DNA from: Flavobacteriales bacterium
GTDB taxonomy: Bacteria; Bacteroidota; Bacteroidia; Flavobacteriales_D; UBA2798
NCBI GenBank assembly: GCA_019694795.1
Contig: JAIBBF010000001.1
Coordinates: forward strand, 2,370-66,369
Reading direction: 5' to 3'
DNA length: 64,000 bases
Numbering within the stretch: the stretch's first letter is position 1; every line of letters starts with the position of its first letter. Below the pieces are notes generated by a model, which saw nothing but the letters and a program-made list of their open reading frames with translations, did no database searches and was not told the DNA's origin. This document shows positions 4,601-48,173 of the stretch, piece by piece. The translations under genes and the position numbers were made by a program.

Positions 4601-7600
4601 AGGAAATATCTGTTCCGCTCACTGACACTGCAAGAGAACTTGGCTCAATGATATTAACTGTAGCTGTTGCTGTACAACCATTAGCATCGGTAACAGTGAA
4701 GGTATAGGTACCAACGCATAATCCATTATTCATTTGTGTATTTACTCCATTGCTCCATGAATAGGTATAAGGAGCAGTTCCGCCTGATGCAACTCCATTT
4801 GCAAATCCGTCGCAGACTCCTGCACATGATACATTACCACTTAAATCAATCGTGGCAGTTAACAAGGTAGGCTCAGTGATGGAAACATTGTATGAATTGA
4901 AGCAGCCATCCGCATCTGTAAGTGTAACGGAATAATTTCCTGCACAAAGTGATGATGCAGTAGATGTAGTTTGTGCGGCTGGATCATTCCATGAAAAACT
5001 AAATGGCGCTACACCAGAGTTGGCAACCAAAGTAGCTGTTCCATCGCATGACTGAAAGCAGAGATTATTTGTTCCTGAAATCGATCCTGTTACTGCAACA
5101 GGTTCGGTTAATTGATATGGAATAATATTCGTACAACCGTTTGCATCACTTAATATGAGTGTATAATTTCCATCACACAATCCATTAACTGATGATGTTG
5201 TACCAATAGATGCATTAGCGTTATCTCTCCAATCAAAGTTATACGGTGTAACACCACCAGTTACGGCGATAGAAATTACACCATCACAATAGGTGAAACA
5301 AGTAGGATCAATGGCTGTAGGAATATAAACGACTAATGGTGGCTCGGTGATGGTGACATTTGTAGAAGCAGCACAACCGGCAGCATCAGTAACCGTTACA
5401 GAATAAGTTCCGGCTGGTAAATTGCTAGCTGTAGGAGTGGTCTGACTGAATGCAGCTGCATCCCATTGAACAGTAAAGATTCCTGTTCCACCGATCATAT
5501 CAACAGTTGCAGAACCATCATCTAATCCATTACAACTTACATTGGTTTGAGCAATGATCGCTGCAGAAGGACCTGCGATGTCGTTAATTTGAATTACCGC
5601 TGTATCTAAACATTGATTAGCATCTGTAATTTGAACCAAATAGGTTCCGGAGAACAAATTGCTTTCACAGTTATTGGTGCTAGCAACAGATAACCATTGT
5701 AAAGTGTAAGGTGTAATTCCTCCACTTGGCGTTACACAACCTGAACCATCGTTTTGCTGACAGTGTGCATCAACAGCAGTAATTGTATTGGTAAGTTCTG
5801 CAGGTTCTGAAATGGTAGCTGAAGCACTTAATGTACATCCATGGTCATCAGTAACTGTTACTGTATAATTTCCGGGACATAAGAAGAACGCTCCTGATGT
5901 TGTTTGATTCAATGGATCATTCCATGCATAGGTGTAAGGTGTTGTTCCACCAGTTACAGTAGCCGAAGCATTTCCATTACATGCACCAAAACATTTCACA
6001 TCCAAACTCGATAATGAAAGTGAATATGCAGGTGGTTCATTCACAACCACACTGGCAGTAGAGTTACAGCCATTATCATCATTAACAGATACTGTATAAG
6101 TTCCGGCTATTAAACCAGATTGATTGGGCGTGGTTCCTATAACTGTACCGCCGCTATTGGTCCATGTTAAATTATAAGCAGGACTTCCACCGGTAGCAGA
6201 CACAGATACTGAACCGTCACTTCCACCGAAACAGTTTACATCAACTGCGGATGGAGTGGCGACTAATAAAGTTGGTTCTGTTATTGTTACTGAACCTGTA
6301 ATGATACACGAATTGGCATCAGTAACAGATAATGTCCAAACACCAGGTGCAAGGTTAGTGGCGGTTGAAGTTGTTTGCACTGGTGAAGTATTCCAGCTAT
6401 ATGTAAATGGTGCAGCGCCTCCGGTCATAACACCTGATGCAGAACCATCATTCGCTCCAAAACAAAGTACATTGTTCACAACGGACATCGTTAATGTTCC
6501 AGCAGGATTATTACCTACTGTGGCAGCTACTGTAACAGTACAGCCATTTGCATCCGTTACTGTGACATTATACGTGTTGGCTGCTAAGTTATTTTCAGTA
6601 GTTGCTACACCTCCGGAAGACCAGCTATAAGAATATGGTGCAGTTCCACCTGCAGCAGTTACGGTAGCAGATCCATCCGAATTCCCGCAGTTTGCATTTA
6701 CAACTGTTGTACTTGCCGTTAATACGGCAGGTTCAGTTACAACAGCAGTTGACGTTTCTGTACAACCATTTACATCGGCAACAACAAGGCTATACGTTCC
6801 AGCACATAAACCGGATTGAGAAGCTCCGGTCAAGCCACCAGTCCAGGTATATGTTAGAGCTCCTGTACCTCCTGCAGCAGTTGCATTTACTGTTCCATTA
6901 CAAGCTCCATTACACAATGCAGGAGTTGCAGTGGTATTTGAAATAACGATATCTGTAGGTTGCGTTACTGCAACACTTGCTGTAGCCGTATTTCCATTTG
7001 CATCAGTTACCGTAACGGTATAGGTATTTGCACAAACATTGATAATGTTTACTGTGCTGGCACCATTGGACCATGAATAGGTATAAGGAGCAACACCACC
7101 TGCTGCCAATGAATTTACTTGTCCGGTGCAGATATTAAAGCAAGTTAAATTTGTCGGACTTAAAGTTACAGTTAGTGGTGCTGGTTCGGTAATGGTAACA
7201 CATGCTGTAGTTACACAACCGGCAGCATCAGTAATGGTTGCGCAATTATTTCCAGCGCATAAATCATTAGCTGTTGCATTGGTATTCGAATTATCCCAAA
7301 GGATTGTATAAGGAGATGTTCCTCCACTTGGTGTTACTGTTGCAGAACCATTGCATAATCCGGCACCCGTTACGTTACTATTTACCACTGCGGTGGCAGA
7401 AGGTCCTGCAATGGTTCCTACTGTTGCGCTGATGGTGGAAACACATCCGTTTGCATCCGTAGCTGTTACTGTATAGTTACCCGCAGGAATTGCTGTTGCG
7501 CTTGCTGTTGTTTGCACAGGTGATGTATTCCACGAATAAGTAATCGGATTTGTTCCTCCGGTAGCAGTAACTGTTGCAGAACCGTCAGCTTGTCCACAAT

Positions 7601-10600
7601 GCGCATCAACAACTGTTGTAGAAAGTGCTAATGCAGCTGGCTCAGTAATGGTTGCAGTAGCTGTTTGCGTGCAGCCATTAGCATCCGTTACAGTTATGGT
7701 GTAAGTACCAGCATTCATTGAACTGGCATTAGTGGTGTTTTGACCTGCACCAGGTGCTGGACTCCAAGTTTGTGTATATGGTGAAACTCCACCACCAATA
7801 GTTGCTGTTGCTGTTCCATTTGAACCACCATTACAACTTACTGGAGTAACAATTGTACTTACGGTAAGTAAAGTTGGTTCAGTAATGGTAACTGTAGCTG
7901 TTTGCGTACATGCATTTGCATCTGTAATCGTAACTGAATAGGATCCTGCAAGCAAACCAGTTGCAGCAGCTGTTCCTTGTCCTCCACCAGGAACAGGTGA
8001 CCAAGCATAACTATAAGGTGAAACACCTCCTGTGATACTTACACTTGCACTTCCATTATTTCCTCCATTACAACTCACCATTGTTGGCGTACCCATACTT
8101 GCAACTAATGCAGCAGGTTCTGTTATTGTAATATTCGTAGTTGCAGAACAACCATTAGCGTCCGTTACAGTCACAGTATATGACCCTGCAGTTAATCCAC
8201 TTGCATTTGCAGATGATCCTCCAGATGGTGACCATGAAATAGATAATGGATTTGTTCCACCTGCTACCGTTACTGCAGCAACACCATTATTTCCTCCATT
8301 ACATGATACATCAACATGTGAAATCATGTTTTCTACGATGGTTGGAGCAGCATCATTGATAACATTTGCAGTTTGTGAAAATGTACATCCGTTTGCATCG
8401 GTTACTGAAACTGTATATGATCCCGCAGGCAATCCAGTAGCAGTAGAACTAGTTTGAACAGGACTTGTATTCCAACTTATATTATATGGGGTTACACCTC
8501 CGGAAATAGCTGCAGTGGCAGTTCCATTACTTGCACCACAAGTTGCATTCGTTGTAGAAGTGCTTATTGCTAATTGAACCGGTTCTGTTATAGTAACTGT
8601 AGCTGTACTGGTACAGTTGTTTGCATCCGTTACAGTAACAGTATATGAACCTGCAGTCATTGATCCAGCACTTGAAGTTCCTTGTCCACTTCCTGGGGCA
8701 GGACTCCAACTGTATGCATATGGAGTTGTACCTCCTGCTGCTGTAACATTCACACTTCCATTATTTCCTCCATTACAACTCACCATGGTTGGTGTGCCCA
8801 TGGTTGATGTTAAAACTGTAGGTTGTGTAATTGTAACACTTGATGTACTTGTACAACCATTCGCATCTGTGATGGTCACAGTGTATGTACCCGCAGTCAT
8901 TGATCCTGCATTCGCAGTTCCTTGTCCACTACCAGGTGCAGGACTCCAGTTATACGAATAAGCTGTAGTTCCTCCTGCTGCTGTTACACTAACGCTTCCG
9001 TTATTTCCTCCATTACAACTCACCATAGTTGGTGTGCCCATGGCTGAAGTTAAAACTGTAGGTTGTGTAATTGTAACACTTGAGGTACTTGTACATCCAT
9101 TCGCATCTGTGATGGTTACAGTGTATGTACCCGCAGTCAATGATCCTGCATTCGCAGTTCCTTGTCCACTACCAGGTGCAGGACTCCAGTTATATGTATA
9201 TGGTGTTGTTCCACCTGCTACGGTTACACTCACGCTTCCATTATTTCCTCCGTTACAACTCACCATGGTTGGTGTGCCCATGGTTGAAGTTAAAACTGTA
9301 GGTTGTGTAATTGTAACGCTTGATGTACTTGTACAACCATTTGCATCAGTGATGGTAACCGTATAAGCACCTGCTGTCATTGATCCAGCATTTGCAGTTC
9401 CTTGTCCGCTTCCAGGTGCAGGACTCCAGTTATACGTATAAGGTGCAGTTCCACCAGTTGCAGTCACGCTTACACTTCCGTTGTTTCCGCCATTACAACT
9501 TACCATTGTTGGTGTGCCCATAGCAGAAGTAAGGGCAGTTGGTTGTGTAATTGTTGTACTTGCAGTTATTGTGCAAGAGTTAGCATCAGTTACAGTTACG
9601 GTGTATGTACCTGCTGTAAGACCTGAAGCTGTAGATGCAGTTCCTCCTGATGGGGACCACGAATAAGTTAAAGCACCTGTTCCGCCTGCTGCACTTACGC
9701 TCACTGCTCCATTATTTCCTCCATTACATAATACTTGTTGTGTAGTGCTGGCAGTTGCTGTTAATACAGGAGGTTGAGTAATAATAATATTTACAGATGC
9801 CGCACAAAGGTTAGCATCTGTTACTGTTACTGTATAGATACCTGCTGTTAATCCACTTGCAGTTGCAGATGTTCCGCCAGATGGAGACCATGAAATCGAC
9901 AATGGTGCTGTTCCGCCTGATACTGTTACTGCGGCTGCTCCATTATTTCCACCATTACATAATACATCTATATGTGAAGCGATGTTTTCTGTAATTGTAG
10001 GCGCAGCATTGTTATTTACAGAAACCGTTGCAGTAGCCGTACAACCATTTAAATCTGTAACGGTAACTGTATATGTTCCCGCTAATAAATTAGATGCTGT
10101 GGCTGTGGATTGCACAGGAGTAGTGTTCCAACTATAAGTATAAGATCCTGCTCCACCTGTTGCAGTTACAGTTGTTGTTCCAGTTGACGCTCCACAGTTT
10201 GTCGGTGTTGATGCAGTGGTTAAACTAATTGCTGTTGGTTGTGTAATGGCTACAGAAGATGTTGCACTACAACCATTATTATCAGTTATAGTTACTGTAT
10301 AAGAACCTGCCGTTAATGAACCTGCATTGGCAGTTCCTTGTCCACTTCCAGGTGCAGGACTCCAGTTATACGTATAAGGTGCAGTTCCGCCCGCTGCTGT
10401 TACACTCACACTTCCATTATTCCCGCCATTACAACTTACCATTGTTGGCGCACCCATTGTCGCTGTTAATACAGCAGGTTGAGTTATTGTTGCACTAGCA
10501 GTAGTTGTACAGCCAGTATTGTCGGTAATGGTGACTGTGTAAGTTCCAGCAGTTAATGAAGATGCTGCTGCTGTTCCCTGACCCGCTCCGGGAGCTGGAC

Positions 10601-13600
10601 TCCAGTTGTAGGTATAAGGTGCTGATCCGCCTGCTGCTGTTACACTCACACTTCCATTATTTCCTCCATTACAACTCACCATTGTTGGTGTACCCATGGT
10701 TGCAGTTAATGCGGTCGGTTGTGTAATCGTAACACTCGCTGTTGCTGTACAGCCTTTGTTGTCAGTAACAGTTACAGTATATGTTCCTGCGGTAAGTGAT
10801 CCGGCATTGGCAGTTCCTTGTCCGCTTCCAGGAGCAGGACTCCAGTTGTACATATAAGGTGCTGTTCCGCCTGCTGCTGTTACACTCACACTTCCATTGT
10901 TACCTCCATTACAACTCACCATTGTTGGTGTGCCCATGGTGGCAGTTAAAACTGTTGGTTGTGTAATCGTAACACTCGCTGTTGCTGTACAGCCTTTGTT
11001 ATCGGTGATGGTTACTGAATAAGTTCCTGCGGTAAGTGATCCTGCATTGGCAGTTCCTTGTCCACTTCCGGGTGCAGGACTCCAGTTGTAGGTATACGGT
11101 GCTGTTCCGCCCGCTGCTGTTACACTCACACTTCCATTGTTTCCTCCATTACAACTCACCATTGTTGGTGTACCCATGGTGGCGGTTAGTACGGCAGGTT
11201 GTGTTATCGTTACACTCGCTGTTGCTGTACAGCCTTTGTTATCGGTTATTGTTACTGTATAGGTTCCGGCAGTTAATGAAGATGCTGCTGCGGTTCCCTG
11301 ACCTGCTCCAGGAGCAGGACTCCAGTTGTAGGTATAAGGTGCTGTTCCGCCAGCTGCTGTTACACTCACACTTCCATTGTTACCTCCATTACAACTCACC
11401 ATTGTTGGTGTACCCATGGTGGCAGTTAATGCGGTAGGTTGTGTAATCGTAACACTCGCTGTTGCTGTACAGCCTTTGTTATCGGTTATGGTTACAGTAT
11501 ACGTTCCTGCAGTAAGTAATCCTGCATTGGCAGTTCCTTGTCCGCTTCCAGGTGCAGGACTCCAGTTATACGTATACGGTGCTGTTCCGCCCGCTGCTGT
11601 TACACTCACACTTCCATTGTTACCTCCATTACAACTCACCATTGTTGGTGTACCCATGGTTGCAGTTAATGCGGTCGGTTGTGTAATCGTAACACTCGCT
11701 GTTGCCGTACAGCCTTTGTTATCGGTGATGGTTACTGAATAAGTTCCTGCGGTAAGTGATCCTGCATTGGCAGTTCCTTGTCCACTTCCAGGTGCAGGAC
11801 TCCAGTTATACGTATAAGGTGCTGTTCCGCCAGCTGCTGTTACACTCACACTTCCATTGTTACCTCCATTACAACTCACCATGGTTGGTGTGCCCATGGT
11901 GGCAGTTAAAACTGTTGGTTGTGTAATCGTAACACTCGCTGTTGCCGTACAGCCTTTGTTATCGGTGATGGTTACTGAATAAGTTCCTGCGGTAAGTGAT
12001 CCTGCATTGGCAGTTCCTTGTCCACTTCCAGGTGCAGGACTCCAGTTATACGTATACGGAGCTGTTCCGCCCGCTGCTGTTACACTCACACTTCCATTGT
12101 TACCACCATTACAACTCACCATGGTTGGTGTACCCATTGTGGCAGTTAAAACTGTTGGTTGGGTAATTGTAACACTGGCTGTTGCAGTACAGCCTTTGTT
12201 ATCGGTGATGGTTACTGTATAAGTTCCTGCGGTAAGTGATCCTGCATTGGCAGTTCCTTGTCCACTTCCGGGTGCAGGACTCCAGTTATACGTATAAGGT
12301 GCTGTTCCACCAGCTGCTGTTACACTCACACTTCCATTGTTACCTGCATTACAACTCACCATTGTCGGTGTACCCATGGTTGCAGTTAATACAGCAGGTT
12401 GTGTTATTGTAACACTTGCTGTTGCTGTACAGCCTTTGTTATCGGTAATGGTTACTGTATACGTTCCTGCAGTCATCCCTGTGATCGAATAGTTGCCTCC
12501 TGATATTGCAATTTCATTCCCTGCTGGATTTCCACTAGTTGGTCCAGTCCAGCTAACATTATAGGCTGCAGTTCCACCAGTTGCTGTTACACTCACACTT
12601 CCATTATTACCGCCATTACAATTCACCATTGTTGGTGTACCCATGGTTGCAGTTAAAACTGTTGGTTGTGTAATTGTAACACTCGCTGTTGCTGTACAGC
12701 CTTTGTTATCTGTAACAGTTACAGTATATGTTCCTGCGGTAAGTGATCCTGCATTGGCAGTTCCTTGTCCGCTTCCGGGTGCAGGACTCCAGTTATACGT
12801 ATAAGGTGCTGTTCCGCCCGCTGCTGTTACACTCACACTTCCATTGTTACCTCCATTACAATTCACCATTGTTGGTGTGCCCATGGTGGCGGTAAGTTGT
12901 GTAGGTTGGGTCATTGAAGCGGAAGCTGTAGCTGTACAACCAAAATTGTTAGTTACAGTTACGGAATAAGGTCCTCCTACAGGAACAGAAACTGTTTGTG
13001 TTGCTTGTCCCGCAGGTGGATTCCATGCATATCCAAATGAAGAACCTCCGGTTGGATTTGCAGTGATGGTTCCATTTTGCCCAAAACAGTTAGGTGGAGT
13101 AACCGTTAAAGTAACTGCCGGATTTGGATTTACTGTGACGCTTAATGTTTCTGTATTTGTACATGTACCATTCGAAACTGTTAATGTCACCGTATAGGTT
13201 CCTGTTGCTCCGTAAGTGTGAGAAACTGTTGAACCTGTTCCAGTGGTTGCATCACCGAAATTCCAGGAATAACTTGTAATTGATCCTGAAGAAATGGTAG
13301 ATGTTGTTCCTGAAAAATTGAACGAGTTTCCAGTTAAACACTGTGCTGCCACCGGTGTGATATTTGCATCTATCGTAACACCTGGGTTAACCGTAGAACT
13401 TGCTGTTCTGGTACAACCATTAGCATCAGTTACAGTTACTGTATACGTACCTGCAACTAATCCGGTAATGGAATAACTACCTCCAGAAGATGCAATCTCT
13501 GTTCCAACAGGTGCACCACTTGATGGACCAATCCAGCTTACATTGTAACCTGCAGTACCTCCAGAAGCCGTAACGGCTATTGATCCATTATTTCCTCCAA

Positions 13601-15572
13601 CGCAAGCAACCGCTGTTGGTGTTAATGTTGCGGTAATTGCTGTTGGTTGAGTAATGGTTACAGAAGGTATTACACGCGTACAACCATTTGCATCTGTAAC
13701 TGTGATATTATAGGTTCCAGCTCCAAGCGCATTTAAAGTATAAGTTCCACCTGAAGATGCAATTTCATTTCCGGCCGGATTTCCAGTTGTTGTTCCTGTC
13801 CATGAAATATTATATGGAGCAGTACCGCCAGATGCAGTTACTACAATACTTCCTGTAGTTCCTCCATTACATGCAACGTTAGTTTGTGTTGTGGTAGCAG
13901 TTATTGCAGTTGGTTGAGTAATGGTTACACTTTGTGTACATGTTACTCCACCAGAAGCAGTTACTGTTACAGTATAAGTTCCGGCTGATAATCCGGTTAC
14001 GGAAGCTGTTCCTTGTCCACCACCAGGTGCAGGACTCCAACTGTAAGAAAATGGCCCCGTCCCACTTGGGGTTGCAGTCGCTGTTCCATTGTTTCCTCCG
14101 TTACAAGTAACATTGGTTTGGGTAGTGGTAATGGAACAAGGACTTACAATATTACAGTTGGTTGCACCAGTACCACCCGATTGTGAAAATTGGATATACC
14201 CGGCGGATCCATTATAGTTGGTGATTAATAACATGTACCATTGTCCGGCTACTGCATTTGGTATATCAGCAGTTTCGGTATATGATGCGGAATAAGAACA
14301 ATCCACAAGGTTTCCACTTGGATATGTGGTAGGAATTGTTGTTGAAGGTGCAATGTTAGCACAGGCATTTGCCACCGAGGTGAATGGACCCCATAATGCA
14401 AAATCGACATCAATACCGACACCGCCAGTGGTATATTGATTGATATTTATGGATATTGGTCCGGAGGTAGCAATATTTAAATACATCCACATTGGGTTAG
14501 GGGTGGAATACAAACAATTGTATTGACCCATTGATGCAACTCCGGTTGTATTACAATAGTTATAGGCAGTACCCGTACAAAATGGATCTGCAGAATTACA
14601 GTTGGTATTTACGGCACCGGCCAAGCATGGTCCGGTTCCTCCACCAGTTGCTGATTCAGTAACACAAAGACTAAACGAACCAAAATCTGTTCCTCCGTAA
14701 TCCCAAACCATGAGATAAACCGTAGTACCTGGAGTTAACCCGGATAAATTTAATTGAGGCATGGTTGTTCCACCCGCATCATCATTACAAGAAATCAATG
14801 TAAAGGTTCCGGAACAACTTGTGGCAGTATAAGCAGCCATCCCCATGTCCGTTAAAGATCCGGCATAAGTTTGAACATTTACCGCTCCAGAAGCAGGAAC
14901 AGTAAACGAATAAAAAACTTCATTTCCACTGTAGAAAGCACAACCCGGAGCAGGAATAGTTTGCGAGGTGGTAGTAGCTCCTGAATTATTACCTGAGGTA
15001 GTTGTACAACCAGTATTGGAAGGATATACTGTTAATGGCGTTGCACCACACGGGTTATCATTGGATGGAACAGTAGTATTATTTGTACTTGCACATATTG
15101 AGAAATTACCATTGTCATTTCCTCCATAATCCCACAAACGAACGTAAATTGTCGTGCCAGGAGTTAAACCAGAAACAGACAAATATGGCATCAACCCATT
15201 AACGGATCCGTCATCATCACAAGCAATTTGTGTGAAAGTACCTGAACAAGATGTTGCAGTATACCATGCCATTCCCATATCCGTAAGAGTACCTGTATTC
15301 ATGTCGATGGTTAAGTTACCGCTCGCAGGCACGGTAACACTATACCATACGTCATCAGATCCAGCTGGATATGAAGAGCAAGTTGGAGCCGGAATACCTA
15401 CAGTTCCTGTTGAGTTTGCAGGCATACTTCCCGCAACATAGGTACAGGATGTTCCAACTGTTAAAACGGTAGCCCCACAAGGATCATCGTTTGTAGGAGG
15501 TGGCATTGCATTTGCCAGGAATGGCATCAAAATAGCAAATGCCAGAAATAAATTCTTCATCAATTTCATCAT
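1656..15572 (-). CDS. Giant (4,638 aa) SprB-repeat cell-surface adhesin with a C-terminal T9SS type-B (CHU_C / gliding-motility C-terminal) sorting domain.
   Basis: Signal peptide MMKLMKNLFLAFAILMPFLANA. Next come two paralogous ~135-aa N-terminal modules and a Cys-rich domain. Dozens of ~80-aa repeats of the form C-NGG-NG...GG-PY-Y-W...L-AG-Y-V-V-D-NGC follow. PKD-like segments are present (YSWNFGDATTG...). The C-terminus reads FTPNGDGKNDVF...FNRWGELIF...WDGT...DVYVWKV. Confidence 0.9.
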   Translation of the reverse strand: MMKLMKNLFLAFAILMPFLANAMPPPTNDDPCGATVLTVGTSCTYVAGSMPANSTGTVGIPAPTCSSYPAGSDDVWYSVTVPASGNLTIDMNTGTLTDMGMAWYTATSCSGTFTQIACDDDGSVNGLMPYLSVSGLTPGTTIYVRLWDYGGNDNGNFSICASTNNTTVPSNDNPCGATPLTVYPSNTGCTTTSGNNSGATTTSQTIPAPGCAFYSGNEVFYSFTVPASGAVNVQTYAGSLTDMGMAAYTATSCSGTFTLISCNDDAGGTTMPQLNLSGLTPGTTVYLMVWDYGGTDFGSFSLCVTESATGGGTGPCLAGAVNTNCNSADPFCTGTAYNYCNTTGVASMGQYNCLYSTPNPMWMYLNIATSGPISININQYTTGGVGIDVDFALWGPFTSVANACANIAPSTTIPTTYPSGNLVDCSYSASYTETADIPNAVAGQWYMLLITNYNGSAGYIQFSQSGGTGATNCNIVSPCSITTTQTNVTCNGGNNGTATATPSGTGPFSYSWSPAPGGGQGTASVTGLSAGTYTVTVTASGGVTCTQSVTITQPTAITATTTQTNVACNGGTTGSIVVTASGGTAPYNISWTGTTTGNPAGNEIASSGGTYTLNALGAGTYNITVTDANGCTRVIPSVTITQPTAITATLTPTAVACVGGNNGSIAVTASGGTAGYNVSWIGPSSGAPVGTEIASSGGSYSITGLVAGTYTVTVTDANGCTRTASSTVNPGVTIDANITPVAAQCLTGNSFNFSGTTSTISSGSITSYSWNFGDATTGTGSTVSHTYGATGTYTVTLTVSNGTCTNTETLSVTVNPNPAVTLTVTPPNCFGQNGTITANPTGGSSFGYAWNPPAGQATQTVSVPVGGPYSVTVTNNFGCTATASASMTQPTQLTATMGTPTMVNCNGGNNGSVSVTAAGGTAPYTYNWSPAPGSGQGTANAGSLTAGTYTVTVTDNKGCTATASVTITQPTVLTATMGTPTMVNCNGGNNGSVSVTATGGTAAYNVSWTGPTSGNPAGNEIAISGGNYSITGMTAGTYTVTITDNKGCTATASVTITQPAVLTATMGTPTMVSCNAGNNGSVSVTAAGGTAPYTYNWSPAPGSGQGTANAGSLTAGTYTVTITDNKGCTATASVTITQPTVLTATMGTPTMVSCNGGNNGSVSVTAAGGTAPYTYNWSPAPGSGQGTANAGSLTAGTYSVTITDNKGCTATASVTITQPTVLTATMGTPTMVSCNGGNNGSVSVTAAGGTAPYTYNWSPAPGSGQGTANAGSLTAGTYSVTITDNKGCTATASVTITQPTALTATMGTPTMVSCNGGNNGSVSVTAAGGTAPYTYNWSPAPGSGQGTANAGLLTAGTYTVTITDNKGCTATASVTITQPTALTATMGTPTMVSCNGGNNGSVSVTAAGGTAPYTYNWSPAPGAGQGTAAASSLTAGTYTVTITDNKGCTATASVTITQPAVLTATMGTPTMVSCNGGNNGSVSVTAAGGTAPYTYNWSPAPGSGQGTANAGSLTAGTYSVTITDNKGCTATASVTITQPTVLTATMGTPTMVSCNGGNNGSVSVTAAGGTAPYMYNWSPAPGSGQGTANAGSLTAGTYTVTVTDNKGCTATASVTITQPTALTATMGTPTMVSCNGGNNGSVSVTAAGGSAPYTYNWSPAPGAGQGTAAASSLTAGTYTVTITDNTGCTTTASATITQPAVLTATMGAPTMVSCNGGNNGSVSVTAAGGTAPYTYNWSPAPGSGQGTANAGSLTAGSYTVTITDNNGCSATSSVAITQPTAISLTTASTPTNCGASTGTTTVTATGGAGSYTYSWNTTPVQSTATASNLLAGTYTVTVTDLNGCTATATVSVNNNAAPTITENIASHIDVLCNGGNNGAAAVTVSGGTAPLSISWSPSGGTSATASGLTAGIYTVTVTDANLCAASVNIIITQPPVLTATASTTQQVLCNGGNNGAVSVSAAGGTGALTYSWSPSGGTASTASGLTAGTYTVTVTDANSCTITASTTITQPTALTSAMGTPTMVSCNGGNNGSVSVTATGGTAPYTYNWSPAPGSGQGTANAGSMTAGAYTVTITDANGCTSTSSVTITQPTVLTSTMGTPTMVSCNGGNNGSVSVTVAGGTTPYTYNWSPAPGSGQGTANAGSLTAGTYTVTITDANGCTSTSSVTITQPTVLTSAMGTPTMVSCNGGNNGSVSVTAAGGTTAYSYNWSPAPGSGQGTANAGSMTAGTYTVTITDANGCTSTSSVTITQPTVLTSTMGTPTMVSCNGGNNGSVNVTAAGGTTPYAYSWSPAPGSGQGTSSAGSMTAGSYTVTVTDANNCTSTATVTITEPVQLAISTSTTNATCGASNGTATAAISGGVTPYNISWNTSPVQTSSTATGLPAGSYTVSVTDANGCTFSQTANVINDAAPTIVENMISHVDVSCNGGNNGVAAVTVAGGTNPLSISWSPSGGSSANASGLTAGSYTVTVTDANGCSATTNITITEPAALVASMGTPTMVSCNGGNNGSASVSITGGVSPYSYAWSPVPGGGQGTAAATGLLAGSYSVTITDANACTQTATVTITEPTLLTVSTIVTPVSCNGGSNGTATATIGGGVSPYTQTWSPAPGAGQNTTNASSMNAGTYTITVTDANGCTQTATATITEPAALALSTTVVDAHCGQADGSATVTATGGTNPITYSWNTSPVQTTASATAIPAGNYTVTATDANGCVSTISATVGTIAGPSATAVVNSNVTGAGLCNGSATVTPSGGTSPYTILWDNSNTNATANDLCAGNNCATITDAAGCVTTACVTITEPAPLTVTLSPTNLTCFNICTGQVNSLAAGGVAPYTYSWSNGASTVNIINVCANTYTVTVTDANGNTATASVAVTQPTDIVISNTTATPALCNGACNGTVNATAAGGTGALTYTWTGGLTGASQSGLCAGTYSLVVADVNGCTETSTAVVTEPAVLTASTTVVNANCGNSDGSATVTAAGGTAPYSYSWSSGGVATTENNLAANTYNVTVTDANGCTVTVAATVGNNPAGTLTMSVVNNVLCFGANDGSASGVMTGGAAPFTYSWNTSPVQTTSTATNLAPGVWTLSVTDANSCIITGSVTITEPTLLVATPSAVDVNCFGGSDGSVSVSATGGSPAYNLTWTNSGGTVIGTTPNQSGLIAGTYTVSVNDDNGCNSTASVVVNEPPAYSLSLSSLDVKCFGACNGNASATVTGGTTPYTYAWNDPLNQTTSGAFFLCPGNYTVTVTDDHGCTLSASATISEPAELTNTITAVDAHCQQNDGSGCVTPSGGITPYTLQWLSVASTNNCESNLFSGTYLVQITDANQCLDTAVIQINDIAGPSAAIIAQTNVSCNGLDDGSATVDMIGGTGIFTVQWDAAAFSQTTPTASNLPAGTYSVTVTDAAGCAASTNVTITEPPLVVYIPTAIDPTCFTYCDGVISIAVTGGVTPYNFDWRDNANASIGTTSSVNGLCDGNYTLILSDANGCTNIIPYQLTEPVAVTGSISGTNNLCFQSCDGTATLVANSGVAPFSFSWNDPAAQTTSTASSLCAGNYSVTLTDADGCFNSYNVSITEPTLLTATIDLSGNVSCAGVCDGFANGVASGGTAPYTYSWSNGVNTQMNNGLCVGTYTFTVTDANGCTATATVNIIEPSSLAVSVSGTDISCFNACDGTMAAAVSGGTTPYSIQWFDPSFATTANVSNVCAGTYDVIVTDANGCSVSNTVTLNQPSILSFAISTVENAFCGQNNGQICASVIGGVAPYTFQYDDPAGQITPCAFNLFSGCYTLTVTDGNGCVKDSLICISDIPGPTLAVTSHSDVTCFGASDGEIVISATGGTNPLVIEWLDGANNVIPAYTGQTTVSTLPGDTYGIVVTDSANCVVATSQFIFEPTGLNAAVTSTTSPLCFGGCDGAATVSMSGGTTPYTIAWSGGANTTSANNTGLCAGNYSAVITDANGCQFTANTTITQPTQLVVNTTSLQNVSCNAVCDGIVNLGVSGATAPYFYSWTNNVSVGSTATNLCAGNYITDVTDNHGCLVTVSNTITEPAALAITVSVTDATCSQCNGASSALVTGGTTPYAYSWTSGAAMNAANNTGLCAGVTDITVTDAHGCVITSNATIIDQAGPVITGLTFTEPLCYGQSNGTATVNTTGGTAPLTYAWDDPAVQTTQTATNLVTGLYCVVVSDNNNCNATNCVDVTEPNPLGAVGDLDVTICYGDSTQLWASGTGGTTPYTVNWQTPGLSGPGPIMVNPLTTTTYCFDITDANGCLSPQDCITITVNPPLDVDVSPTIAICLNDSTTLAASASGGNGGPYTFTWYDQNGATLNDIESGNQSTVTVNPSVDTWYTVKVDDGCSIVALDSVQVTINDLPIVFFNVVDSAGCAPFTAQFILNTDIGVNFDYDFQCDGVVDYSGTSPNTTFTYPNPGTYDVCVTVTSALGCVTTVSQTEMVDVYPVPVADFSTTPGTTTILSPTITFGDLSTGTPVTYQWDFGDGFTLTGAPGVNVPANTHNGLTIGTFDDPIHTYADTGTFDVTLFITNQYGCTDVITYQVTVEGDYILFTPNTFTPNGDGKNDVFIPVGIGISMDEYEMLVFNRWGELIFETHNPNTGWDGTHKGEPAKQDVYVWKVKAFDHRGVQHDYIGHITLLR
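1659..1930 (-). other. Type-B T9SS sorting domain of the giant adhesin.
   Basis: The last ~90 aa read ILFTPNTFTPNGDGKNDVFIPVG...LVFNRWGELIFE...WDGTHKGEPAKQDVYVWKVKAFD...GHITLLR. Confidence 0.8.
8590..9550 (-). repeat. Tandem array of 4 near-identical 240-bp (80-aa) SprB-repeat units (TDANGCTSTSSVTITQPTVLTS variant).
   Basis: Sequence lines 8761, 9001, 9241 and 9481 are in exact 240-bp register and nearly identical (ttatttcctccattacaactcaccatggttggtgtgcccatgg...). Confidence 0.85.
10260..12930 (-). repeat. Tandem array of 11 near-identical SprB-repeat units (TDNKGCTATASVTITQP variant). Nine consecutive units are in exact 240-bp register; one unit is an 89-aa variant.
   Basis: Lines 10381, 10621, 10861, 11101, 11341, 11581, 11821, 12061 and 12301 align in phase. 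11701..11760 is identical to 11941..12000 (60/60). 10861..10920 vs 11341..11400 differ at 1 of 60 positions. Two adjacent units are identical at the protein level. Confidence 0.9.
14661..15494 (-). other. Duplicated ~135-aa N-terminal module of the giant adhesin (function unassigned).
   Basis: Module A is NDDPCGATVL...SCSGTFTQIACDDDG...LSGLTPGTTIYVRLWDYGGNDNGNFSICA. Module B is NDNPCGATPL...SCSGTFTLISCNDDAG...LSGLTPGTTVYLMVWDYGGTDFGSFSLCV. Confidence 0.6.
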
Positions 15573-15593: not shown

Positions 15594-16010
15594 TTATTTT
15601 GAACTCGGATCGAGTGTGTATTTGAAAATATTCGAAATCTGAAATCCGCCGTTAGTAATTGCAGTTTTCAAATCGAGCGAAGAATATTTTCCGGGGACTT
15701 CCAAATGAATCCGGTTTTTCTCATCTACCGAAAATTTCAAAACCGGAATTTGATTTTCGATTAGGGATTTAATCGCATTTAATTTCTCTTTCGACTCCAC
15801 ACCCTGAATGGTGAATTCAAAATAGCGACTTAAACCAAAATAAAAATCACGATTAAATGATTTGTTTGCATCAACAATAGCTTTAACATCTTCGGAGAGA
15901 TTTTCGTAATTATCACCGGCGTTACTACTGTTAGAACTGAATTGCCCGAAAGATGAAGTGGCAACAAAGAATAAAGAAAGAAATAATAATTTCTTAATAG
16001 AATTTTCCAT
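15594..16010 (-). CDS. Small secreted hypothetical protein (138 aa), 21 bp upstream of the giant adhesin.
   Basis: ORF track. Signal peptide MENSIKKLLFLSLFFVATSSFGQ. No recognisable catalytic motif. The short gap suggests co-transcription with 1656..15572. Confidence 0.6.
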   Translation of the reverse strand: MENSIKKLLFLSLFFVATSSFGQFSSNSSNAGDNYENLSEDVKAIVDANKSFNRDFYFGLSRYFEFTIQGVESKEKLNAIKSLIENQIPVLKFSVDEKNRIHLEVPGKYSSLDLKTAITNGGFQISNIFKYTLDPSSK

Positions 16011-16122
16011 CGCAAGCTTGATTTGATTCTGACTTTGAAATTAAGAAAATGGTAGAAATACCGAAGTAAAAAATGCAAAAATCAAAGTGAGTTATCAACA
16101 GGTTTTCATTGGAGAAAATCGC

Positions 16123-16161
16123 AGAAAAAAAAACGCGAATGTGAATTTTACATCCGCGTTT
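16123..16161 (-). terminator. Rho-independent terminator after the sigma/anti-sigma pair.
   Basis: On the minus strand, aaacgcg (plus an inner atgt/acat pairing) ... cgcgttt is followed by T8. It starts 21 nt after the stop at 16183. Confidence 0.6.
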
Positions 16162-16182: not shown

Positions 16183-17604
16183 TTATTTAAGCAATGTCAC
16201 CGATCCACGATACAATTCTTCACCTTTTATTGCAACCGTCCAGATATAAACTCCTTCCGGTGCCGCCTGGTTATCGCTCATGAATTTACCATCCCAGGGA
16301 CGGAAAGCAGAATTGGTTTGATACACTAAACGTCCTTCACGGGTGTGTATGGTCATTACAAACTCAACATCCATTACAGTTAAAGAGAATGGGATAAAGG
16401 TGTTATTGGTATTATCCCCATTTGGTGAGAAGGCATTTGGTGCCAACAGATTGAAGTCCTCTTCTATATGTACAGTCTGAACTGTTTTATTACTGCAACC
16501 ATTTGCAGCAGTAACTCCAAGCATTACCTTATAATCACCTTTGTGACGGAAAAATTTATCGACTTGTGAAGCAGAAGAATTTGTGCCATCGGGGAACAAC
16601 CATTTTGCATTGACAAAATCAGAAGAATTATTTTCGAAATGGACGATGGGTCGGCCATTTACGATTTCCTCATTGAATCTAAAGGATGCTACAGGTGCTG
16701 GTTTTACTAGTATTGATTTTGTAACGGTCGACGTTTTTTCTTTTCCATTGGTGTAATACAATGCAATGGAATAGATACCTGGTTCAGAGAAATAATAACT
16801 GAGTTTTTCGGTCTGAATAGGCAATCCGTTACCATTGATTTCCCAAACACAAGAATAATTTTTTACAGGTTTAGCAGAACTAAATTCAATTTCTTGTCCG
16901 GAACAAAACTCTTCTGCCCCAATGATAATTTCAGGCGAAGGTAAAACCTGGGATGCGGTTGAATGATCCTCAACTTTATCCGTTAAATCAACGGGATTCG
17001 TTTTGTCGTCCTTTTTATCATTCGGATTAACCGTATGCTTATCATTAGGAGAAACATCGGTTAAGTCCTGAGGTCCTTTTTTATTCAGATCTGCATTAAA
17101 ATCATTTGGTGCAGGGTCTTTTGAAACCGACAAATCAACACTGCTAGAATTATTTCCTATGGTGGACTTATTCTGATTATTATCAATGGAATTATCGGCG
17201 TTTACAACTGTATTGTTGTTGTTGACCTCAATTTTATTATCCGATACAGCAATCGTTTTCTCGTGTGTAAGCGGATTCGTTTTTTGTGATTCGTTGGGCG
17301 TTCCGGAAAAATAAATCAGGGAACTTATACCAACAACACCTGCAATTCCGGCGGCAATCCACCAACCATATTTAACAGGGTGCAATGAAGATTCGAGGAG
17401 GGACCATTGACTAGCATCATAGGGAACCTCAACTTGATTGACTTTATTTTGTAATGTATTTTCAAAAGCATCGTGAACAGGAGCTTGTTCGGAAGCATCC
17501 AACCCCGACGCAATTTGCGACCAGGCGGACGGATCAAATGGCATCTCGAAATTCTCGAGCGACTCATTGATCATTTTTTCGAACCCGTTTAACTTGTGCT
17601 CCAT
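16183..17604 (-). CDS. Bitopic anti-sigma-like membrane protein with PKD-like domains and a C-terminal T9SS type-B (CHU_C) sorting domain.
   Basis: The start lies 1 nt after the sigma gene stop. The ~80-aa N-terminal region has an internal repeat (FEMPFDPSAWSQIASGL / VEVPYDASQWSLLESSL). There is one TM helix, WWIAAGIAGVVGISSLIYF. An N/D/K/P-rich linker and two Ig/PKD-like segments follow. The C-terminus reads APNAFSPNGDNTNNTFIPF...WDGKF...GVYIWTVAIKG...VTLLK. Confidence 0.7.
   Translation of the reverse strand: MEHKLNGFEKMINESLENFEMPFDPSAWSQIASGLDASEQAPVHDAFENTLQNKVNQVEVPYDASQWSLLESSLHPVKYGWWIAAGIAGVVGISSLIYFSGTPNESQKTNPLTHEKTIAVSDNKIEVNNNNTVVNADNSIDNNQNKSTIGNNSSSVDLSVSKDPAPNDFNADLNKKGPQDLTDVSPNDKHTVNPNDKKDDKTNPVDLTDKVEDHSTASQVLPSPEIIIGAEEFCSGQEIEFSSAKPVKNYSCVWEINGNGLPIQTEKLSYYFSEPGIYSIALYYTNGKEKTSTVTKSILVKPAPVASFRFNEEIVNGRPIVHFENNSSDFVNAKWLFPDGTNSSASQVDKFFRHKGDYKVMLGVTAANGCSNKTVQTVHIEEDFNLLAPNAFSPNGDNTNNTFIPFSLTVMDVEFVMTIHTREGRLVYQTNSAFRPWDGKFMSDNQAAPEGVYIWTVAIKGEELYRGSVTLLK
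16186..16452 (-). other. Type-B T9SS sorting domain at the C-terminus of the anti-sigma-like protein.
   Basis: It shares the pattern NAFSPNGD-N--F ... WDG ... GVY-W ... G-V-L-K/R with the C-termini of the 1656..15572 and 43058..48157 proteins. Confidence 0.65.
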
Positions 17605-17605
17605 T

Positions 17606-18184
17606 TTATTTATAAGTCAAATGCTTATTCAGCAATCCTTTTAATTTCAATTTTGCCTTTGAAAGATTGGATTTGGAGGTACCTATACTAATATTTAAAG
17701 TATCCGCAATTTCCTTGTGTGAGTAATTTTCGAAAACATATAAGTTGAACACGGTTTGATAAGCAGGACTCAATTTTTGCATTGCCTCCAATACCATTTC
17801 CGGTTTAATGCTTTCGTAAATGGATAAGTCTTCTTCTTCGCTTAAATCGCCTGGGGAATCACCTTCCTCATCCGCAATTCCTGCCTCATCTTCCAGCATC
17901 AGTAAATTTTTATTTTTCCTGAAGTGGTCAATGGCAGTATTGACAACAATTCTTCGCAACCAACCTTCAAACGAACCTGAAAAATTAAAATCCTTCAATT
18001 TTTCAAACGCTTTAATAAAGGCATCCTGAAGCATATCCTGCGCAGTATCCCGATCACGGGTATATCGCATGCACACAGCCATCATCTTTCCAAAGAACAT
18101 CCGAAAGATTTGTTCCTGCGCCCTGCGATCACCTGCAACGCAGCCTTTGAGGGCAGATTCCAGTTGATCAGAGTTTAGTTTCAT
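17606..18184 (-). CDS. ECF-type RNA polymerase sigma-70 family factor.
   Basis: Region 2 reads DAFIKAFEKLKDF...FEGWLRRIVVNTAIDHFRK. Region 4 reads YQTVFNLYVFENYSHKEIADTLNISIGTSKSNLSKAKLKLK. The protein is 192 aa. Confidence 0.9.
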   Translation of the reverse strand: MKLNSDQLESALKGCVAGDRRAQEQIFRMFFGKMMAVCMRYTRDRDTAQDMLQDAFIKAFEKLKDFNFSGSFEGWLRRIVVNTAIDHFRKNKNLLMLEDEAGIADEEGDSPGDLSEEEDLSIYESIKPEMVLEAMQKLSPAYQTVFNLYVFENYSHKEIADTLNISIGTSKSNLSKAKLKLKGLLNKHLTYK

Positions 18185-22208: not shown

Positions 22209-22591
22209 TAAAAGGGATCCGCCTCGCTAAAATCGACCACCACATGCGTTTCTCCCGGCTTATTGTTTATCAACACATGAGCACCACCTTCTAATGCAAC
22301 ATTTCCGGTTGAATCAGTGGTATATGCGTAAACATAATAATCGCCTCGTTTTAAATTATCGAAGGTGTAGTCACCCGTATAATCGCAAGTTGCGTTTTCA
22401 TCGTAGGAAACATTCTGACCCGGATACGAACTTGCTCCGTATTTTATTTTTAATTGAGCGTACGGCATGTTGGATAGGCCATTGATGCAGGTGACATTAA
22501 TCTTTGCTTTTCCTCCTTTACCGGGACCCTTTTCGCAGGAATAAACAAAAACAGAAATGATGAAAAGAAAGAGAATACTAACGCGATTCAT
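22208..22591 (-). CDS. Small lipoprotein, hypothetical.
   Basis: The signal peptide ends in a lipobox-like VFVYSC. The gene overlaps both neighbours, giving an operon with 22578..24863 and 21804..22208. Confidence 0.55.
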   Translation of the reverse strand: MNRVSILFLFIISVFVYSCEKGPGKGGKAKINVTCINGLSNMPYAQLKIKYGASSYPGQNVSYDENATCDYTGDYTFDNLKRGDYYVYAYTTDSTGNVALEGGAHVLINNKPGETHVVVDFSEADPF

Positions 22592-24863
22592 TTTTTACCA
22601 GTTTTAAAGTTTGAGTTTTCCCTTCGGAAATTATTTGAACCAGATAGATACCGTTCGACCACGACTCAATATTTAAATCAATCCTTGAGCTAGTCATTCG
22701 CACAAATTGAATTTTATTTCCTACCATGTCGTAAATGTGAACATCGGCATTTACACCAAATTTATCCGCATTCAGGGTTACCTGTTGGTTTGCAGGATTG
22801 GGATAAAGCATAAATTTTACCTGCTGCATGATTTCATTTAATCCGGAGGTACCATTGTAATCCCCATTGTAATAGGAGATACCGCCACGGTAATTCCCAA
22901 GCAACATATCCATTTGACCATCATTATTTAAATCGGCCACAGCAGGAGATGTACGGAGTCCATCTAAAACTTCAAAAACGGTTGTATCTACTCGGGTAAA
23001 TGCGCCACTTAAATTTCCATCAATATTATTGTAATGATGCACCCAGCCGGCTTTTGAACCAATGAATAACTGATATTCTCCGTTATCATCGTAAATCGAA
23101 GGAACTGAATAACCACTGGCATCCCACCATTCCTTTACGTTTAATTGTCCGAAATAATCGGTGATGTATTTAAATAAAGGAGTAGTAACTGTTCCTGTGT
23201 TTTGGTAATAGGTAATTTTTCCTGATTTATTTCCAACCAGCAAATCCAAATCATTATCTCTGTCGATATCGATTAAAAGTGGAGCAGAAAATTGTCCCAC
23301 ATCAATAATATTCCCCACATCGTCGGTCATTCCTGCCTGTGTTAATTGATGATCATACGGATTTCCGGCGCCGGCGATATTGGTAAAGAGTGAAAGAATA
23401 CCTAATTCATTTCCAACAATCATTTCATCATCGCCATCATTATCCAAATCACCAAAGGTGGGATAATAGCTTCTGCGGTTGATCAGAACATCAAGCGATT
23501 CGTAATTTTCAGTGACCAATTCAAATGAAGGCACGGTAGCTGTGCCAATGTTTTTATAGAGACTGATCTGAGAAAATACAGAGTCGTTAACCGGATTGTA
23601 AAAGCCATATGAAGCTACAAACAAATCGAGCAACCCATCTTCATTATAATCTGCTAAAACCGGATATGCACCTTCTCCTTTTTCGATCATTTCATCTTGA
23701 AGAAAATCGCGTTTTACAAAACTGAAATTAGGGACAGCATCCGTATTTGAATTCAGATAGTACAATACACTTTTTTGATTTTCGGATGAGCCGGTCGATT
23801 GCGGTGTTACAACTAAATCCCGCTTTCCATCGTTATTGACATCCAAAAAGAATGAACAAGGAAAAAGCTCCAGCTTAATTGGGGTATCATATACCGGAAA
23901 CAAGGTATCGAGTGAGGTCATGCATTGGTGAGCATTTGGAACTGTTGCTCCGTTTACTACTAAAACCTCATTGGGAAAAGAAACATCGCCCATTAGCAGG
24001 TCCTTCATGTTATCTCCATTTACATCCAATACGCACGTACATGAACCGGAATGACGCATTACACTTCTGTTATCGGGATCATCGCGATAATTTTTATCAC
24101 GCTCGGTGGCCTCTTCTATTAGTTCGGCTAATTGCGGATTAGGAATTCCCGTATTCGCGCACGTGTCGTTTAAATAAACTGAATTGTTGGTTTGATTTTC
24201 GGTAAAACAACCCCAGCATTGATTCATTAATGTGTAATCCAAACTATCGCAACCAAATCCGTTTTCTACCGAGTAATTCCGATGATATTCCAATGATGTA
24301 CCAAACACGCCAAAAGTTAATACATCCATATCGCCATCACCATCTATATCTTCAATTCCGGCAAGGTCGACGGAGCTCACGTATAAATTGACATAATTAC
24401 CCAATTGCCAGGATCGGATTAAATCTTTAACCAAAACAAAACTCAACACGCCTCCGCTGCTTGTATTCTTATACAGACGAATACCCCCGGGTGTGTAGGT
24501 CCACAAATCTTCCAGTCCATCACAATTATAATCTTTCAAAATCGCCCAGTTCATCATAGTGGGAAACTGCATCTCGTATTCCGGCGCATAACGATATTCA
24601 ATATTATTTGCACCTGGCTGGTGAAGAAAACACAAGGGTTTATTTCCGGTTCGATCGAACAACAACAAGTCTTTCACCCCATCCCCATTTAAATCAATGG
24701 TGTTAAACTGAGCATAATTGATTCCACCGGCCCAGGCCAAACGAAGAGTATCGGTTCCGGAACGTACAGCCACTGAATCATATCGGGTAAATAAATAAGG
24801 CGTTTGTGCACTTAGGCTCCCCGCCAGTACCATTATCCAACCCAAAAACAAATATTTCCGCAT
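22578..24863 (-). CDS. FG-GAP/VCBS-repeat protein with a T9SS type-A (Por_Secre_tail) C-terminal sorting domain.
   Basis: Signal peptide. Repeated D-N-DG--D-L calcium-binding-like loops (DLNGDGVKDLL, DIDGDGDMDVL, DVNNDGKRDLV, DLDNDGDDEMI, DLNNDGQMDML). The C-terminus reads LYPNPANQQVTLN...IYDMVGNKI...NGIYLVQIISEGKTQTLKLVK. Confidence 0.8.
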   Translation of the reverse strand: MRKYLFLGWIMVLAGSLSAQTPYLFTRYDSVAVRSGTDTLRLAWAGGINYAQFNTIDLNGDGVKDLLLFDRTGNKPLCFLHQPGANNIEYRYAPEYEMQFPTMMNWAILKDYNCDGLEDLWTYTPGGIRLYKNTSSGGVLSFVLVKDLIRSWQLGNYVNLYVSSVDLAGIEDIDGDGDMDVLTFGVFGTSLEYHRNYSVENGFGCDSLDYTLMNQCWGCFTENQTNNSVYLNDTCANTGIPNPQLAELIEEATERDKNYRDDPDNRSVMRHSGSCTCVLDVNGDNMKDLLMGDVSFPNEVLVVNGATVPNAHQCMTSLDTLFPVYDTPIKLELFPCSFFLDVNNDGKRDLVVTPQSTGSSENQKSVLYYLNSNTDAVPNFSFVKRDFLQDEMIEKGEGAYPVLADYNEDGLLDLFVASYGFYNPVNDSVFSQISLYKNIGTATVPSFELVTENYESLDVLINRRSYYPTFGDLDNDGDDEMIVGNELGILSLFTNIAGAGNPYDHQLTQAGMTDDVGNIIDVGQFSAPLLIDIDRDNDLDLLVGNKSGKITYYQNTGTVTTPLFKYITDYFGQLNVKEWWDASGYSVPSIYDDNGEYQLFIGSKAGWVHHYNNIDGNLSGAFTRVDTTVFEVLDGLRTSPAVADLNNDGQMDMLLGNYRGGISYYNGDYNGTSGLNEIMQQVKFMLYPNPANQQVTLNADKFGVNADVHIYDMVGNKIQFVRMTSSRIDLNIESWSNGIYLVQIISEGKTQTLKLVKNESR

Positions 24864-37777: not shown

Positions 37778-37780
37778 GCA

Positions 37781-38893: not shown

Positions 38894-38894
38894 T

Positions 38895-48157: not shown

Positions 48158-48173
48158 AAAACAGTAATCATCA

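Follow-up and report, generated by a model that had tools for sequence, protein, structure and literature searches.

A predicted Dma-type ECF sigma/anti-sigma gene pair carrying a putative type B T9SS sorting domain in Flavobacteriales

The gene pair and its products

The DNA analysed here, referred to as the window, is a stretch of 64,000 nucleotides (nt) from contig JAIBBF010000001.1 of a Flavobacteriales bacterium (assembly GCA_019694795.1; contig positions 2,370 to 66,369). Its reverse strand carries a pair of adjacent genes, the first encoding an extracytoplasmic function (ECF) sigma factor and the second a 473-amino acid (aa) protein. The reading of this second protein as the anti-sigma factor of the first is well supported by sequence comparison. 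The stop codon of the sigma gene, TAA, is followed by a single base and then by the ATG of the second open reading frame (ORF). The elements of the locus, from promoter to terminator, are collected in Table 1.

The sigma factor is matched by Sigma70_r2 at residues 33-92 (57 bits), by Sigma70_r4_2 at residues 130-181 (57.7 bits) and by TIGR02937 (100.9 bits, cut-off 42.9). With regions 2 and 4 only, in about 190 aa, it has the composition of the ECF (group 4) sigma-70 factors. Its best NCBIfam subfamilies score below their cut-offs (TIGR02985, 101 versus 126 bits; NF058625, 82 versus 130 bits).

The partner protein begins with a motif that is present twice. A profile built from homologues places it at residues 10-43 (independent E-value 2.5e-11) and 49-111 (2.5e-22), and the 473-aa protein is the only ORF of the window that this profile matches. 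Residues 1-110 have no match in Pfam or NCBIfam, even at E-values of up to 5, and this includes the ASD, zf-HC2, RskA and FecR domains. A structure prediction by AlphaFold, based on an alignment of 33 sequences, contains four short helices in this region (residues 6-17, 25-36, 45-55 and 64-73). Residues 75-217 are predicted to be disordered, with a local confidence score (pLDDT) below 50, and are followed over residues 225-473 by three confident beta-sandwich domains with a pLDDT of ~90, namely two PKD-like domains and the C-terminal domain (CTD). The second of the PKD-like domains is also recognized by PKD_4 (residues 303-378, 57.3 bits), while the one at residues 225-301 is seen in the structure prediction only and has no Pfam match. 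Foldseek searches return tandem immunoglobulin-like (Ig) arrays, the best of which is GhpA, a type IX secretion system (T9SS) cargo protein. Against the PDB, the matches are of the generic tandem-Ig kind only.

The CTD is matched by CHU_C (PF13585) at residues 388-470 with 44.3 bits, the cut-off being 27. The last ~95 residues are 36% and 31% identical to the CTDs of two adhesins encoded in the window, of 4,638 and 1,699 aa, both of which carry CHU_C. The family alignment contains five conserved CTD blocks, which probably correspond to the published motifs A-E.

The protein has no cleavable N-terminal Sec signal peptide. Its only hydrophobic segment begins at about residue 81-83, with a mean Kyte-Doolittle hydropathy of 1.74 over 19 aa from residue 83 (family mean, 1.9). 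Among 88 family members, lysine and arginine together average 2.57 in the 15 residues that precede this segment and 0.97 in those that follow it, and aspartate and glutamate 0.69 and 2.64, respectively. The bias is positive-inside in 67 of the 88, with 14 ties, and no member has the segment among its first 12 residues. Between this transmembrane (TM) segment and the first domain lie 60-150 aa (median 124). This tether is rich in N, E, T and S and cannot be aligned between members; it is its length, not its sequence, that is conserved. The charge bias, the position of the segment and the length of the tether across the 88 members indicate an N-in signal anchor followed by a length-conserved tether, and support an extracytoplasmic location of the C-terminal part.

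A downstream start that would yield a normal signal peptide was considered and rejected, as residue V78 is encoded by GTT and the region upstream is conserved as protein. No in-frame ATG or GTG is found just 5′ of the TM segment. There is an in-frame TTG at L74, and the same conservation upstream argues against its use as a start.

Every descriptive statement of the initial annotation of this DNA, which had been made from the letters and a list of ORFs, is borne out by these results. The ORF coordinates and the 1-nt gap agree with the ORF check and the sequence itself, and the call of an ECF sigma factor with the profile searches. The duplicated N-terminal motif it described is real, as are the low-complexity linker with two PKD-like domains and the C-terminal module held in common with both adhesins. 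Its single TM helix, too far from the N-terminus for a cleavable signal peptide, and its bitopic layout with the C-terminal part outside the cytoplasm are upheld by the topology analysis.

Table 1. Features of the sigma/anti-sigma locus, in window coordinates
Feature	Position	Strand	Evidence and remarks
ECF-type promoter GCAACC-N16-CGTCTAA	18200..18227	-	43 nt 5′ of sigma start; autoregulation presumed
ECF (group 4) sigma factor, 192 aa	17606..18184	-	Sigma70_r2 and r4_2 matches, no region 3
473-aa anti-sigma-like protein, stop included	16183..17604	-	Family architecture (417-479 aa)
N-terminal repeat 1, aa 6-36, helix / xPFD loop / helix	17497..17589	-	Profile; AlphaFold helices 6-17 and 25-36
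N-terminal repeat 2, aa 45-73, invariant W67	17386..17472	-	Copy kept in every family member; alignment and profile
Single TM segment, aa ~81-101, N-in/C-out signal anchor	17302..17364	-	Hydropathy and charge bias
Disordered low-complexity tether, aa ~102-224	16933..17301	-	pLDDT; unalignable sequence
Two Ig/PKD-like beta-sandwich domains, aa ~225-301 and 303-380	16465..16932	-	PKD_4, AlphaFold, Foldseek
CHU_C / type B T9SS C-terminal domain, aa 385-473	16186..16452	-	PF13585, alignment
Intrinsic-terminator-like hairpin and T-run	16121..16161	-	12 bp stem, 5 G-C pairs; ~20 nt past anti-sigma stop

Conservation, promoter and sister operons

A scan with one genome per species gave 62 homologous loci, 56 of which hold a full-length homologue together with upstream DNA. 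An orthologous ECF sigma gene lies directly upstream in all 56, on the same strand and abutting or overlapping the start (E-values of 1e-49 to 1e-100). Two cultured strains are among them, Crocinitomix catalasitica ATCC 23190 and Putridiphycobacter roseus SM1701. Some 37 proteins of 417-479 aa have the full architecture, at 25-46% identity, and conservation is highest in the CTD, which holds 13 of the 19 invariant columns. In 43 loci the gene mdh (malate dehydrogenase) is divergent and upstream of the pair, which points to vertical inheritance. By this comparison, the pair can be regarded as a core feature, passed on vertically, of a clade within the Flavobacteriales that comprises Crocinitomicaceae, Luteibaculaceae, Salibacteraceae and relatives. 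The neighbourhoods of the homologous loci contain no other conserved candidate for the anti-sigma factor.

Crocinitomix-like genomes carry a conserved ORF of 126-129 aa (MSLEIKATLKTP...), without a signal peptide, ~150-250 nt 3′ of the anti-sigma gene. It is present in loci L006-L011, L014, L016, L028 and L034, often with a secreted protein of ~1,250 aa after it.

The promoter-like sequence is conserved along with the genes. GCAACC-N15/16-CGT(C/T) is found 31-48 nt 5′ of the sigma start in 51 of the 56 loci, and a GCATCC variant in the other five. The copy in the window is the best site there (22 bits) of a position weight matrix (PWM). At a threshold of at least 17 bits, the matrix built from the conserved sites finds just three further sites in 1.49 Mb of loci, all of them just 3′ of the anti-sigma gene and before small secreted ORFs, and is thus highly specific. 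These three sites have the form GCAACC-N16-CGTC, and the ORFs that they precede are L045:10028-10480, L055:9613-10017 and L057:9215-9610. Small, fast-evolving secreted proteins of 131-151 aa are encoded just 3′ of the anti-sigma gene in several genomes. A second strict match in the window, at 29892, was rejected. It falls within a glutamine synthetase III gene, and such a match is compatible with chance, with 0.67 matches to the strict pattern expected in the window and two or more in 14 of 100 shuffled sequences.

In the window, the anti-sigma gene is followed by the hairpin with its T-run, a gene for a 138-aa secreted protein and then the gene of the giant adhesin (4,638 aa). The 138-aa protein (15594-16010, reverse strand) carries a signal peptide, matches no family and lacks a GCAACC-type promoter; it is conserved in only two or three loci. 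No sigma-type promoter was found before the giant adhesin in the pattern and PWM scan of the window. Among the 39 loci with enough sequence, ten have a CHU_C protein of ~1,250 aa directly downstream of the pair, with a gap of 22-23 nt in L037 and L046. The association of the pair with type B cargo is, on present sequence evidence, recurrent but not universal. Co-transcription of the adhesin with the pair was considered and rejected, since the terminator, the missing promoter and the weak synteny make it unlikely. The functional link to the giant adhesin operon that the initial annotation had drawn is, for the same reasons, not upheld.

The N-terminal motif extends well beyond this family. Its consensus, F(E/D)xxIKxxLxN(F/Y)ExPYDxxxWxxLxxxL, occurs as one copy at the very N-terminus of most family members and as two copies in the window protein and a few others. 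Neither Pfam nor NCBIfam has a model for it. A profile of the motif with the TM segment retrieves 2,764 clusters from 1.84 billion representatives at E-values of up to 1e-3, with between one copy and eight or more per protein. A 64-aa N-terminal profile searched against a 5.8-billion-protein index returns four fragments only. Pfam scans of 111 of the best module matches separate three architectures: PKD with CHU_C (41 of 111), a beta-barrel of the OMP_b-brl_2 or OMP_b-brl type (~33) and PorP_SprF (6). The Pfam CHU_C threshold is passed by 38 of 51 plus 3 of 60 relatives. An ECF sigma gene lies immediately upstream in every example with readable context, for all three architectures (barrel-type examples are L063, L064 and L065). 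This motif of ~30 aa appears to be an uncurated anti-sigma module, spread across the Bacteroidota in about 2,800 protein clusters. Some barrel-type proteins (P0110, P0107 and P0118) carry 7-10 tandem copies of the ~30-aa cytoplasmic motif. Such numbers could serve to hold several sigma factors per chain, or to provide avidity.

The PorP_SprF architecture bears directly on the sorting domain. Type B CTDs need PorP/SprF-like shuttles for their recognition, and in SprB the conserved motifs are each required for secretion (PMC12618676). In the sister operon, the sigma gene is followed by a gene in which the module, in three to four repeats, is joined through a TM segment and a disordered tether to a PorP_SprF barrel. 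This gene abuts a third, which encodes a small CHU_C protein of 214-220 aa with a lipoprotein-type signal peptide (CHU_C, 27.5-28.6 bits). The triad of sigma, module-PorP_SprF and CHU_C lipoprotein is present in all five loci with downstream DNA; it spans L066:2715-5695, L067:4439-7513, L068:62-2761 and L071:2412-5471, which are related loci outside the window. A metagenome scan for such PorP/SprF-fused relatives, with three query sequences, gave three loci. The module is thus tethered either to the receptor (PorP/SprF) or to its ligand (CHU_C), which suggests that the type B branch of the T9SS is the route by which the window protein's CTD acts. This complementarity of receptor and ligand is the strongest argument for such a role. 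The proposal of the initial annotation that the T9SS or a PorP/SprF partner engages the periplasmic part draws its support from this comparison, that is, from the module-PorP/SprF fusions beside a CHU_C lipoprotein gene.

A proposed mechanism and its alternatives

A family of anti-sigma factors with a comparable layout was described in 2024. The Dma family is confined to the Bacteroidota, and its member Dma1 (BT_4721), annotated as OMP_b-brl_2, shares an operon with the ECF21 sigma factor Das1 (PMC10927553). In Dma1, the N-terminal region is followed by a TM helix, from which a long disordered tether leads to an outer-membrane barrel (PMC10927553; preprint 10.1101/2025.09.27.678952). Its first 40 aa suffice to pull down Das1, and the protein is found full-length in membranes and as C-terminal fragments in outer-membrane vesicles (PMC10927553).

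The explanation that is considered somewhat probable is that the locus is a self-promoted, two-gene ECF sigma/anti-sigma operon of the Dma type. In place of the barrel, the anti-sigma factor would carry a T9SS type B cargo module (PKD-PKD-CHU_C), and engagement of this module by the T9SS would control the release of the sigma factor. The proposed coupling to the T9SS is supported by comparison. The window sigma factor is 53% identical to sigma factors that have PorP/SprF-type partners and 39-45% identical to those with beta-barrel (Dma-type) partners.

With a gap of a single nucleotide, the two genes would be translationally coupled. The anti-sigma factor would be inserted into the inner membrane as an N-in signal anchor, as its charge bias predicts, and its cytoplasmic helix-loop-helix repeats would hold the sigma factor at the membrane by analogy with the first 40 aa of Dma1. 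The extension of this binding to repeat 2 of the window protein is likewise made by analogy. The disordered tether of ~125 aa may allow the folded PKD-PKD-CTD head to reach the outer membrane, where a PorP/SprF-type shuttle at the T9SS translocon would recognize the CTD; the conservation of the CTD and the sister operons point in this direction. Engagement by the T9SS, attempted export or its failure would then alter the tension on the tether or the access to it. The tether may be cut and the membrane stub removed by intramembrane proteolysis, in analogy to the Dma1 fragments and to RseA-type systems. The freed sigma factor would transcribe from GCAACC-N16-CGTY promoters, including its own, which is present in the sequence. 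The outcome would be that transcription reports the state of the T9SS type B branch or of the outer membrane.

A further proposition, which is put forward tentatively, is that the T9SS itself serves as the input device of an ECF sigma pathway, with a tethered type B substrate whose capture, pulling or export by the translocon and a PorP/SprF shuttle triggers its destruction. If this is the case, sigma activity would provide a checkpoint on competence for secretion, and the Bacteroidota would have an equivalent of FlgM/sigma-28. The same design would be mirrored in the PorP/SprF-fused paralogues and their small CHU_C lipoprotein, with a tethered shuttle and a free cargo.

Sensing of the state of the T9SS and the outer membrane in Bacteroidota is known mainly from PorXY-SigP of Porphyromonas. 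The conserved family described here, from at least 56 species including two cultured strains, has a type B sorting domain at the sensing end of a Dma-like protein, and its sister family a PorP/SprF shuttle with a CHU_C lipoprotein encoded next door. Together they offer a concrete and testable hypothesis that links T9SS function to ECF signalling and that bears on what Dma-type anti-sigma factors sense. They also call into question the textbook rule by which a T9SS substrate has its signal peptide cleaved and exists in the periplasm as a soluble intermediate.

Several observations weigh against the proposed mechanism. Although conserved, the N-terminal repeats receive a pLDDT of just 55-66 from AlphaFold, and the clearly hydrophobic TM segment (residues 81-101) is not modelled as a helix (pLDDT below 50). 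TIGR04131, the model for the T9SS type B sorting domain, matches with 33.2 bits, slightly below its cut-off of 35. The pattern and PWM scan of the window found no target promoter besides that of the sigma gene itself. There is no PorP/SprF gene beside the pair, and the only one in the window, at 48174-49106, belongs to another adhesin; orphan type B cargo does exist in F. johnsoniae (PMC12618676). The relationship to Dma1 is indirect, being drawn through motif-sharing, sigma-adjacent OMP_b-brl_2 proteins and not through the sequence of BT_4721. Finally, a physical problem arises from the inner-membrane tether, since the chain would still have to pass the T9SS or dock there.

In one alternative, the protein is of the Dma type and the CTD is a static outer-membrane anchor. 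The CTD would only dock the head on a PorP/SprF-like barrel from the periplasm, in place of the Dma barrel, and the signal would be envelope or outer-membrane damage, or spacing, with no transport by the T9SS. A tethered chain could hardly finish T9SS export, the relatives fused to PorP/SprF have a lasting anchor in the outer membrane, and canonical Dma proteins are presumed to detect outer-membrane perturbation by way of a barrel that stays inserted (PMC10927553). The window protein nevertheless retains all five conserved CTD blocks, each of a kind needed for secretion in SprB, and the published shuttles are described as engaging their cargo after translocation (PMC12618676). The static anchor departs from the T9SS-engaged anti-sigma factor solely in the nature of the signal, and is considered doubtful.

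A conventional anti-sigma factor confined to a single membrane is a more distant candidate. Here the PKD domains would sense a periplasmic ligand, and the CHU_C-like domain would be vestigial or re-purposed, with no link to the T9SS. Periplasmic sensor domains are common among ECF anti-sigma factors, and the TIGR04131 score and the missing PorP/SprF neighbour would suit this view. It is made unlikely by the CTD, which is the best conserved part among homologues of 25-45% identity and reaches the Pfam CHU_C threshold in the window protein as in many relatives. In addition, a membrane-proximal sensor needs no long disordered tether of conserved length, and the N-terminal module is fused elsewhere to the PorP/SprF barrels of the T9SS.

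That the protein is not an anti-sigma factor at all, but an ordinary PKD protein secreted by the T9SS, whose gene shares a transcript with the sigma gene and is perhaps under the control of the sigma factor, and whose long N-terminus is an extended signal peptide or anchor that is cleaved off, is very improbable: a TM segment followed by a polar stretch could serve as an export signal and the TTG at L74 could give a signal-peptide-like start, but the N-terminal motif is conserved at the protein level with an invariant Trp, is repeated from one to eight or more times and is attached to unrelated C-termini that are all sigma-adjacent, no family member has its hydrophobic segment in the first 12 residues, the locus has no other conserved anti-sigma candidate, and the corresponding end of Dma1 binds its sigma factor.

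Neighbouring genes and known systems

The window contains further proteins of the T9SS. The giant adhesin (1656-15572, reverse strand) has dozens of near-identical SprB-type repeats of ~75 aa, followed by PKD domains and CHU_C, and looks like orphan type B cargo because no PorP/SprF gene is adjacent. Next to it, a 259-aa ORF with a TTG start (786-1565, reverse strand) has a signal peptide, is rich in cysteine and is without a family match. It was rejected as the PorP/SprF of the giant adhesin on account of this lack of a match and of its Cys-rich, secreted-type N-terminus. It has the look of a gene fragment or of the first portion of a further large secreted protein. A classic type B cassette lies at 43058-51451 on the forward strand. 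The 1,699-aa adhesin, with SprB repeats, Ig_7 and CHU_C, comes first, and the cassette also holds the PorP/SprF gene (270 bits) and a 781-aa, PorE/CHU_0125-like protein of the OmpA family. An FG-GAP repeat protein (22578-24863, reverse strand), the orthologue of which is syntenic in ten loci, has a type A CTD (Por_Secre_tail), so that both CTD classes are present within the window. The reverse strand at 33993-39983 encodes a TonB-dependent receptor, an HTTM/vitamin-K-carboxylase-like membrane protein, an imelysin (Peptidase_M75) and a DUF4856 protein, a cluster that looks like a metal-uptake locus.

Among known systems, Dma1/Das1 is similar in its co-oriented, adjacent ECF sigma gene and in the order of a short cytoplasmic N-terminus, one TM segment, a disordered tether and an outer-membrane-type end, as well as in its restriction to the Bacteroidota. 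The motif of the window protein is also common to sigma-adjacent OMP_b-brl_2 proteins of exactly the Dma layout. The difference is that two PKD domains and a type B sorting domain stand where Dma has its 8-stranded beta-barrel; Pfam and AlphaFold show PKD, PKD and CHU_C beta-sandwiches in the 473-aa protein and no OMP_b-brl_2 barrel. The protein is therefore a variant of Dma and not a canonical member, and its reach to the outer membrane would depend on the T9SS or PorP/SprF and not on barrel insertion. A T9SS CTD on a membrane-anchored regulator had been called topologically odd. This topology has a precedent in the Dma anti-sigma factors, whose layout lets them extend to the outer membrane. 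No literature was found that links a Dma-type or any other anti-sigma factor to a T9SS sorting domain. While the Dma kind is known, the variant with a T9SS CTD and the PorP/SprF-fused sister operon both appear to be undescribed.

Type B cargo of the T9SS, such as SprB with SprF and Fjoh_3952 with Fjoh_3951 (PMC12618676, PMC9143113), has a CTD of the CHU_C/TIGR04131 type with conserved blocks, as does the 473-aa protein, in which PKD/Ig domains come before the CTD as they do in the adhesins of the window. The 473-aa protein differs in being anchored in the inner membrane and in being paired with a sigma gene instead of a PorP/SprF gene.

FlgM, the anti-sigma factor of sigma-28 and part of the flagellar assembly checkpoint, is a soluble cytoplasmic protein that is exported whole. 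The proposed logic is the same, in that the anti-sigma factor would be a secretion substrate and sigma activity would report the function of the machine. There is no homology, and the window protein is membrane-anchored, so that only its periplasmic head could be taken.

Cell-surface signalling of the FecA/FecR/FecI type, which includes SusC-linked anti-sigma factors of the Bacteroidota (as cited within PMC10927553), resembles the proposed system as a trans-envelope relay, which starts at an outer-membrane protein, passes via the periplasmic part of a bitopic anti-sigma factor and ends at an ECF sigma factor. The window system has neither a FecR domain nor a TonB-dependent transducer, and it would make contact through a T9SS sorting domain.

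The nearest published concept is that of Porphyromonas gingivalis, in which PorA feeds PorXY-SigP (PMC7712824). There too, a CTD-bearing T9SS protein informs an ECF sigma factor that controls T9SS-related genes. PorA carries a type A CTD, is a surface protein in its own right and acts by a two-component route, whereas in the window the CTD and the predicted anti-sigma factor are parts of one polypeptide.

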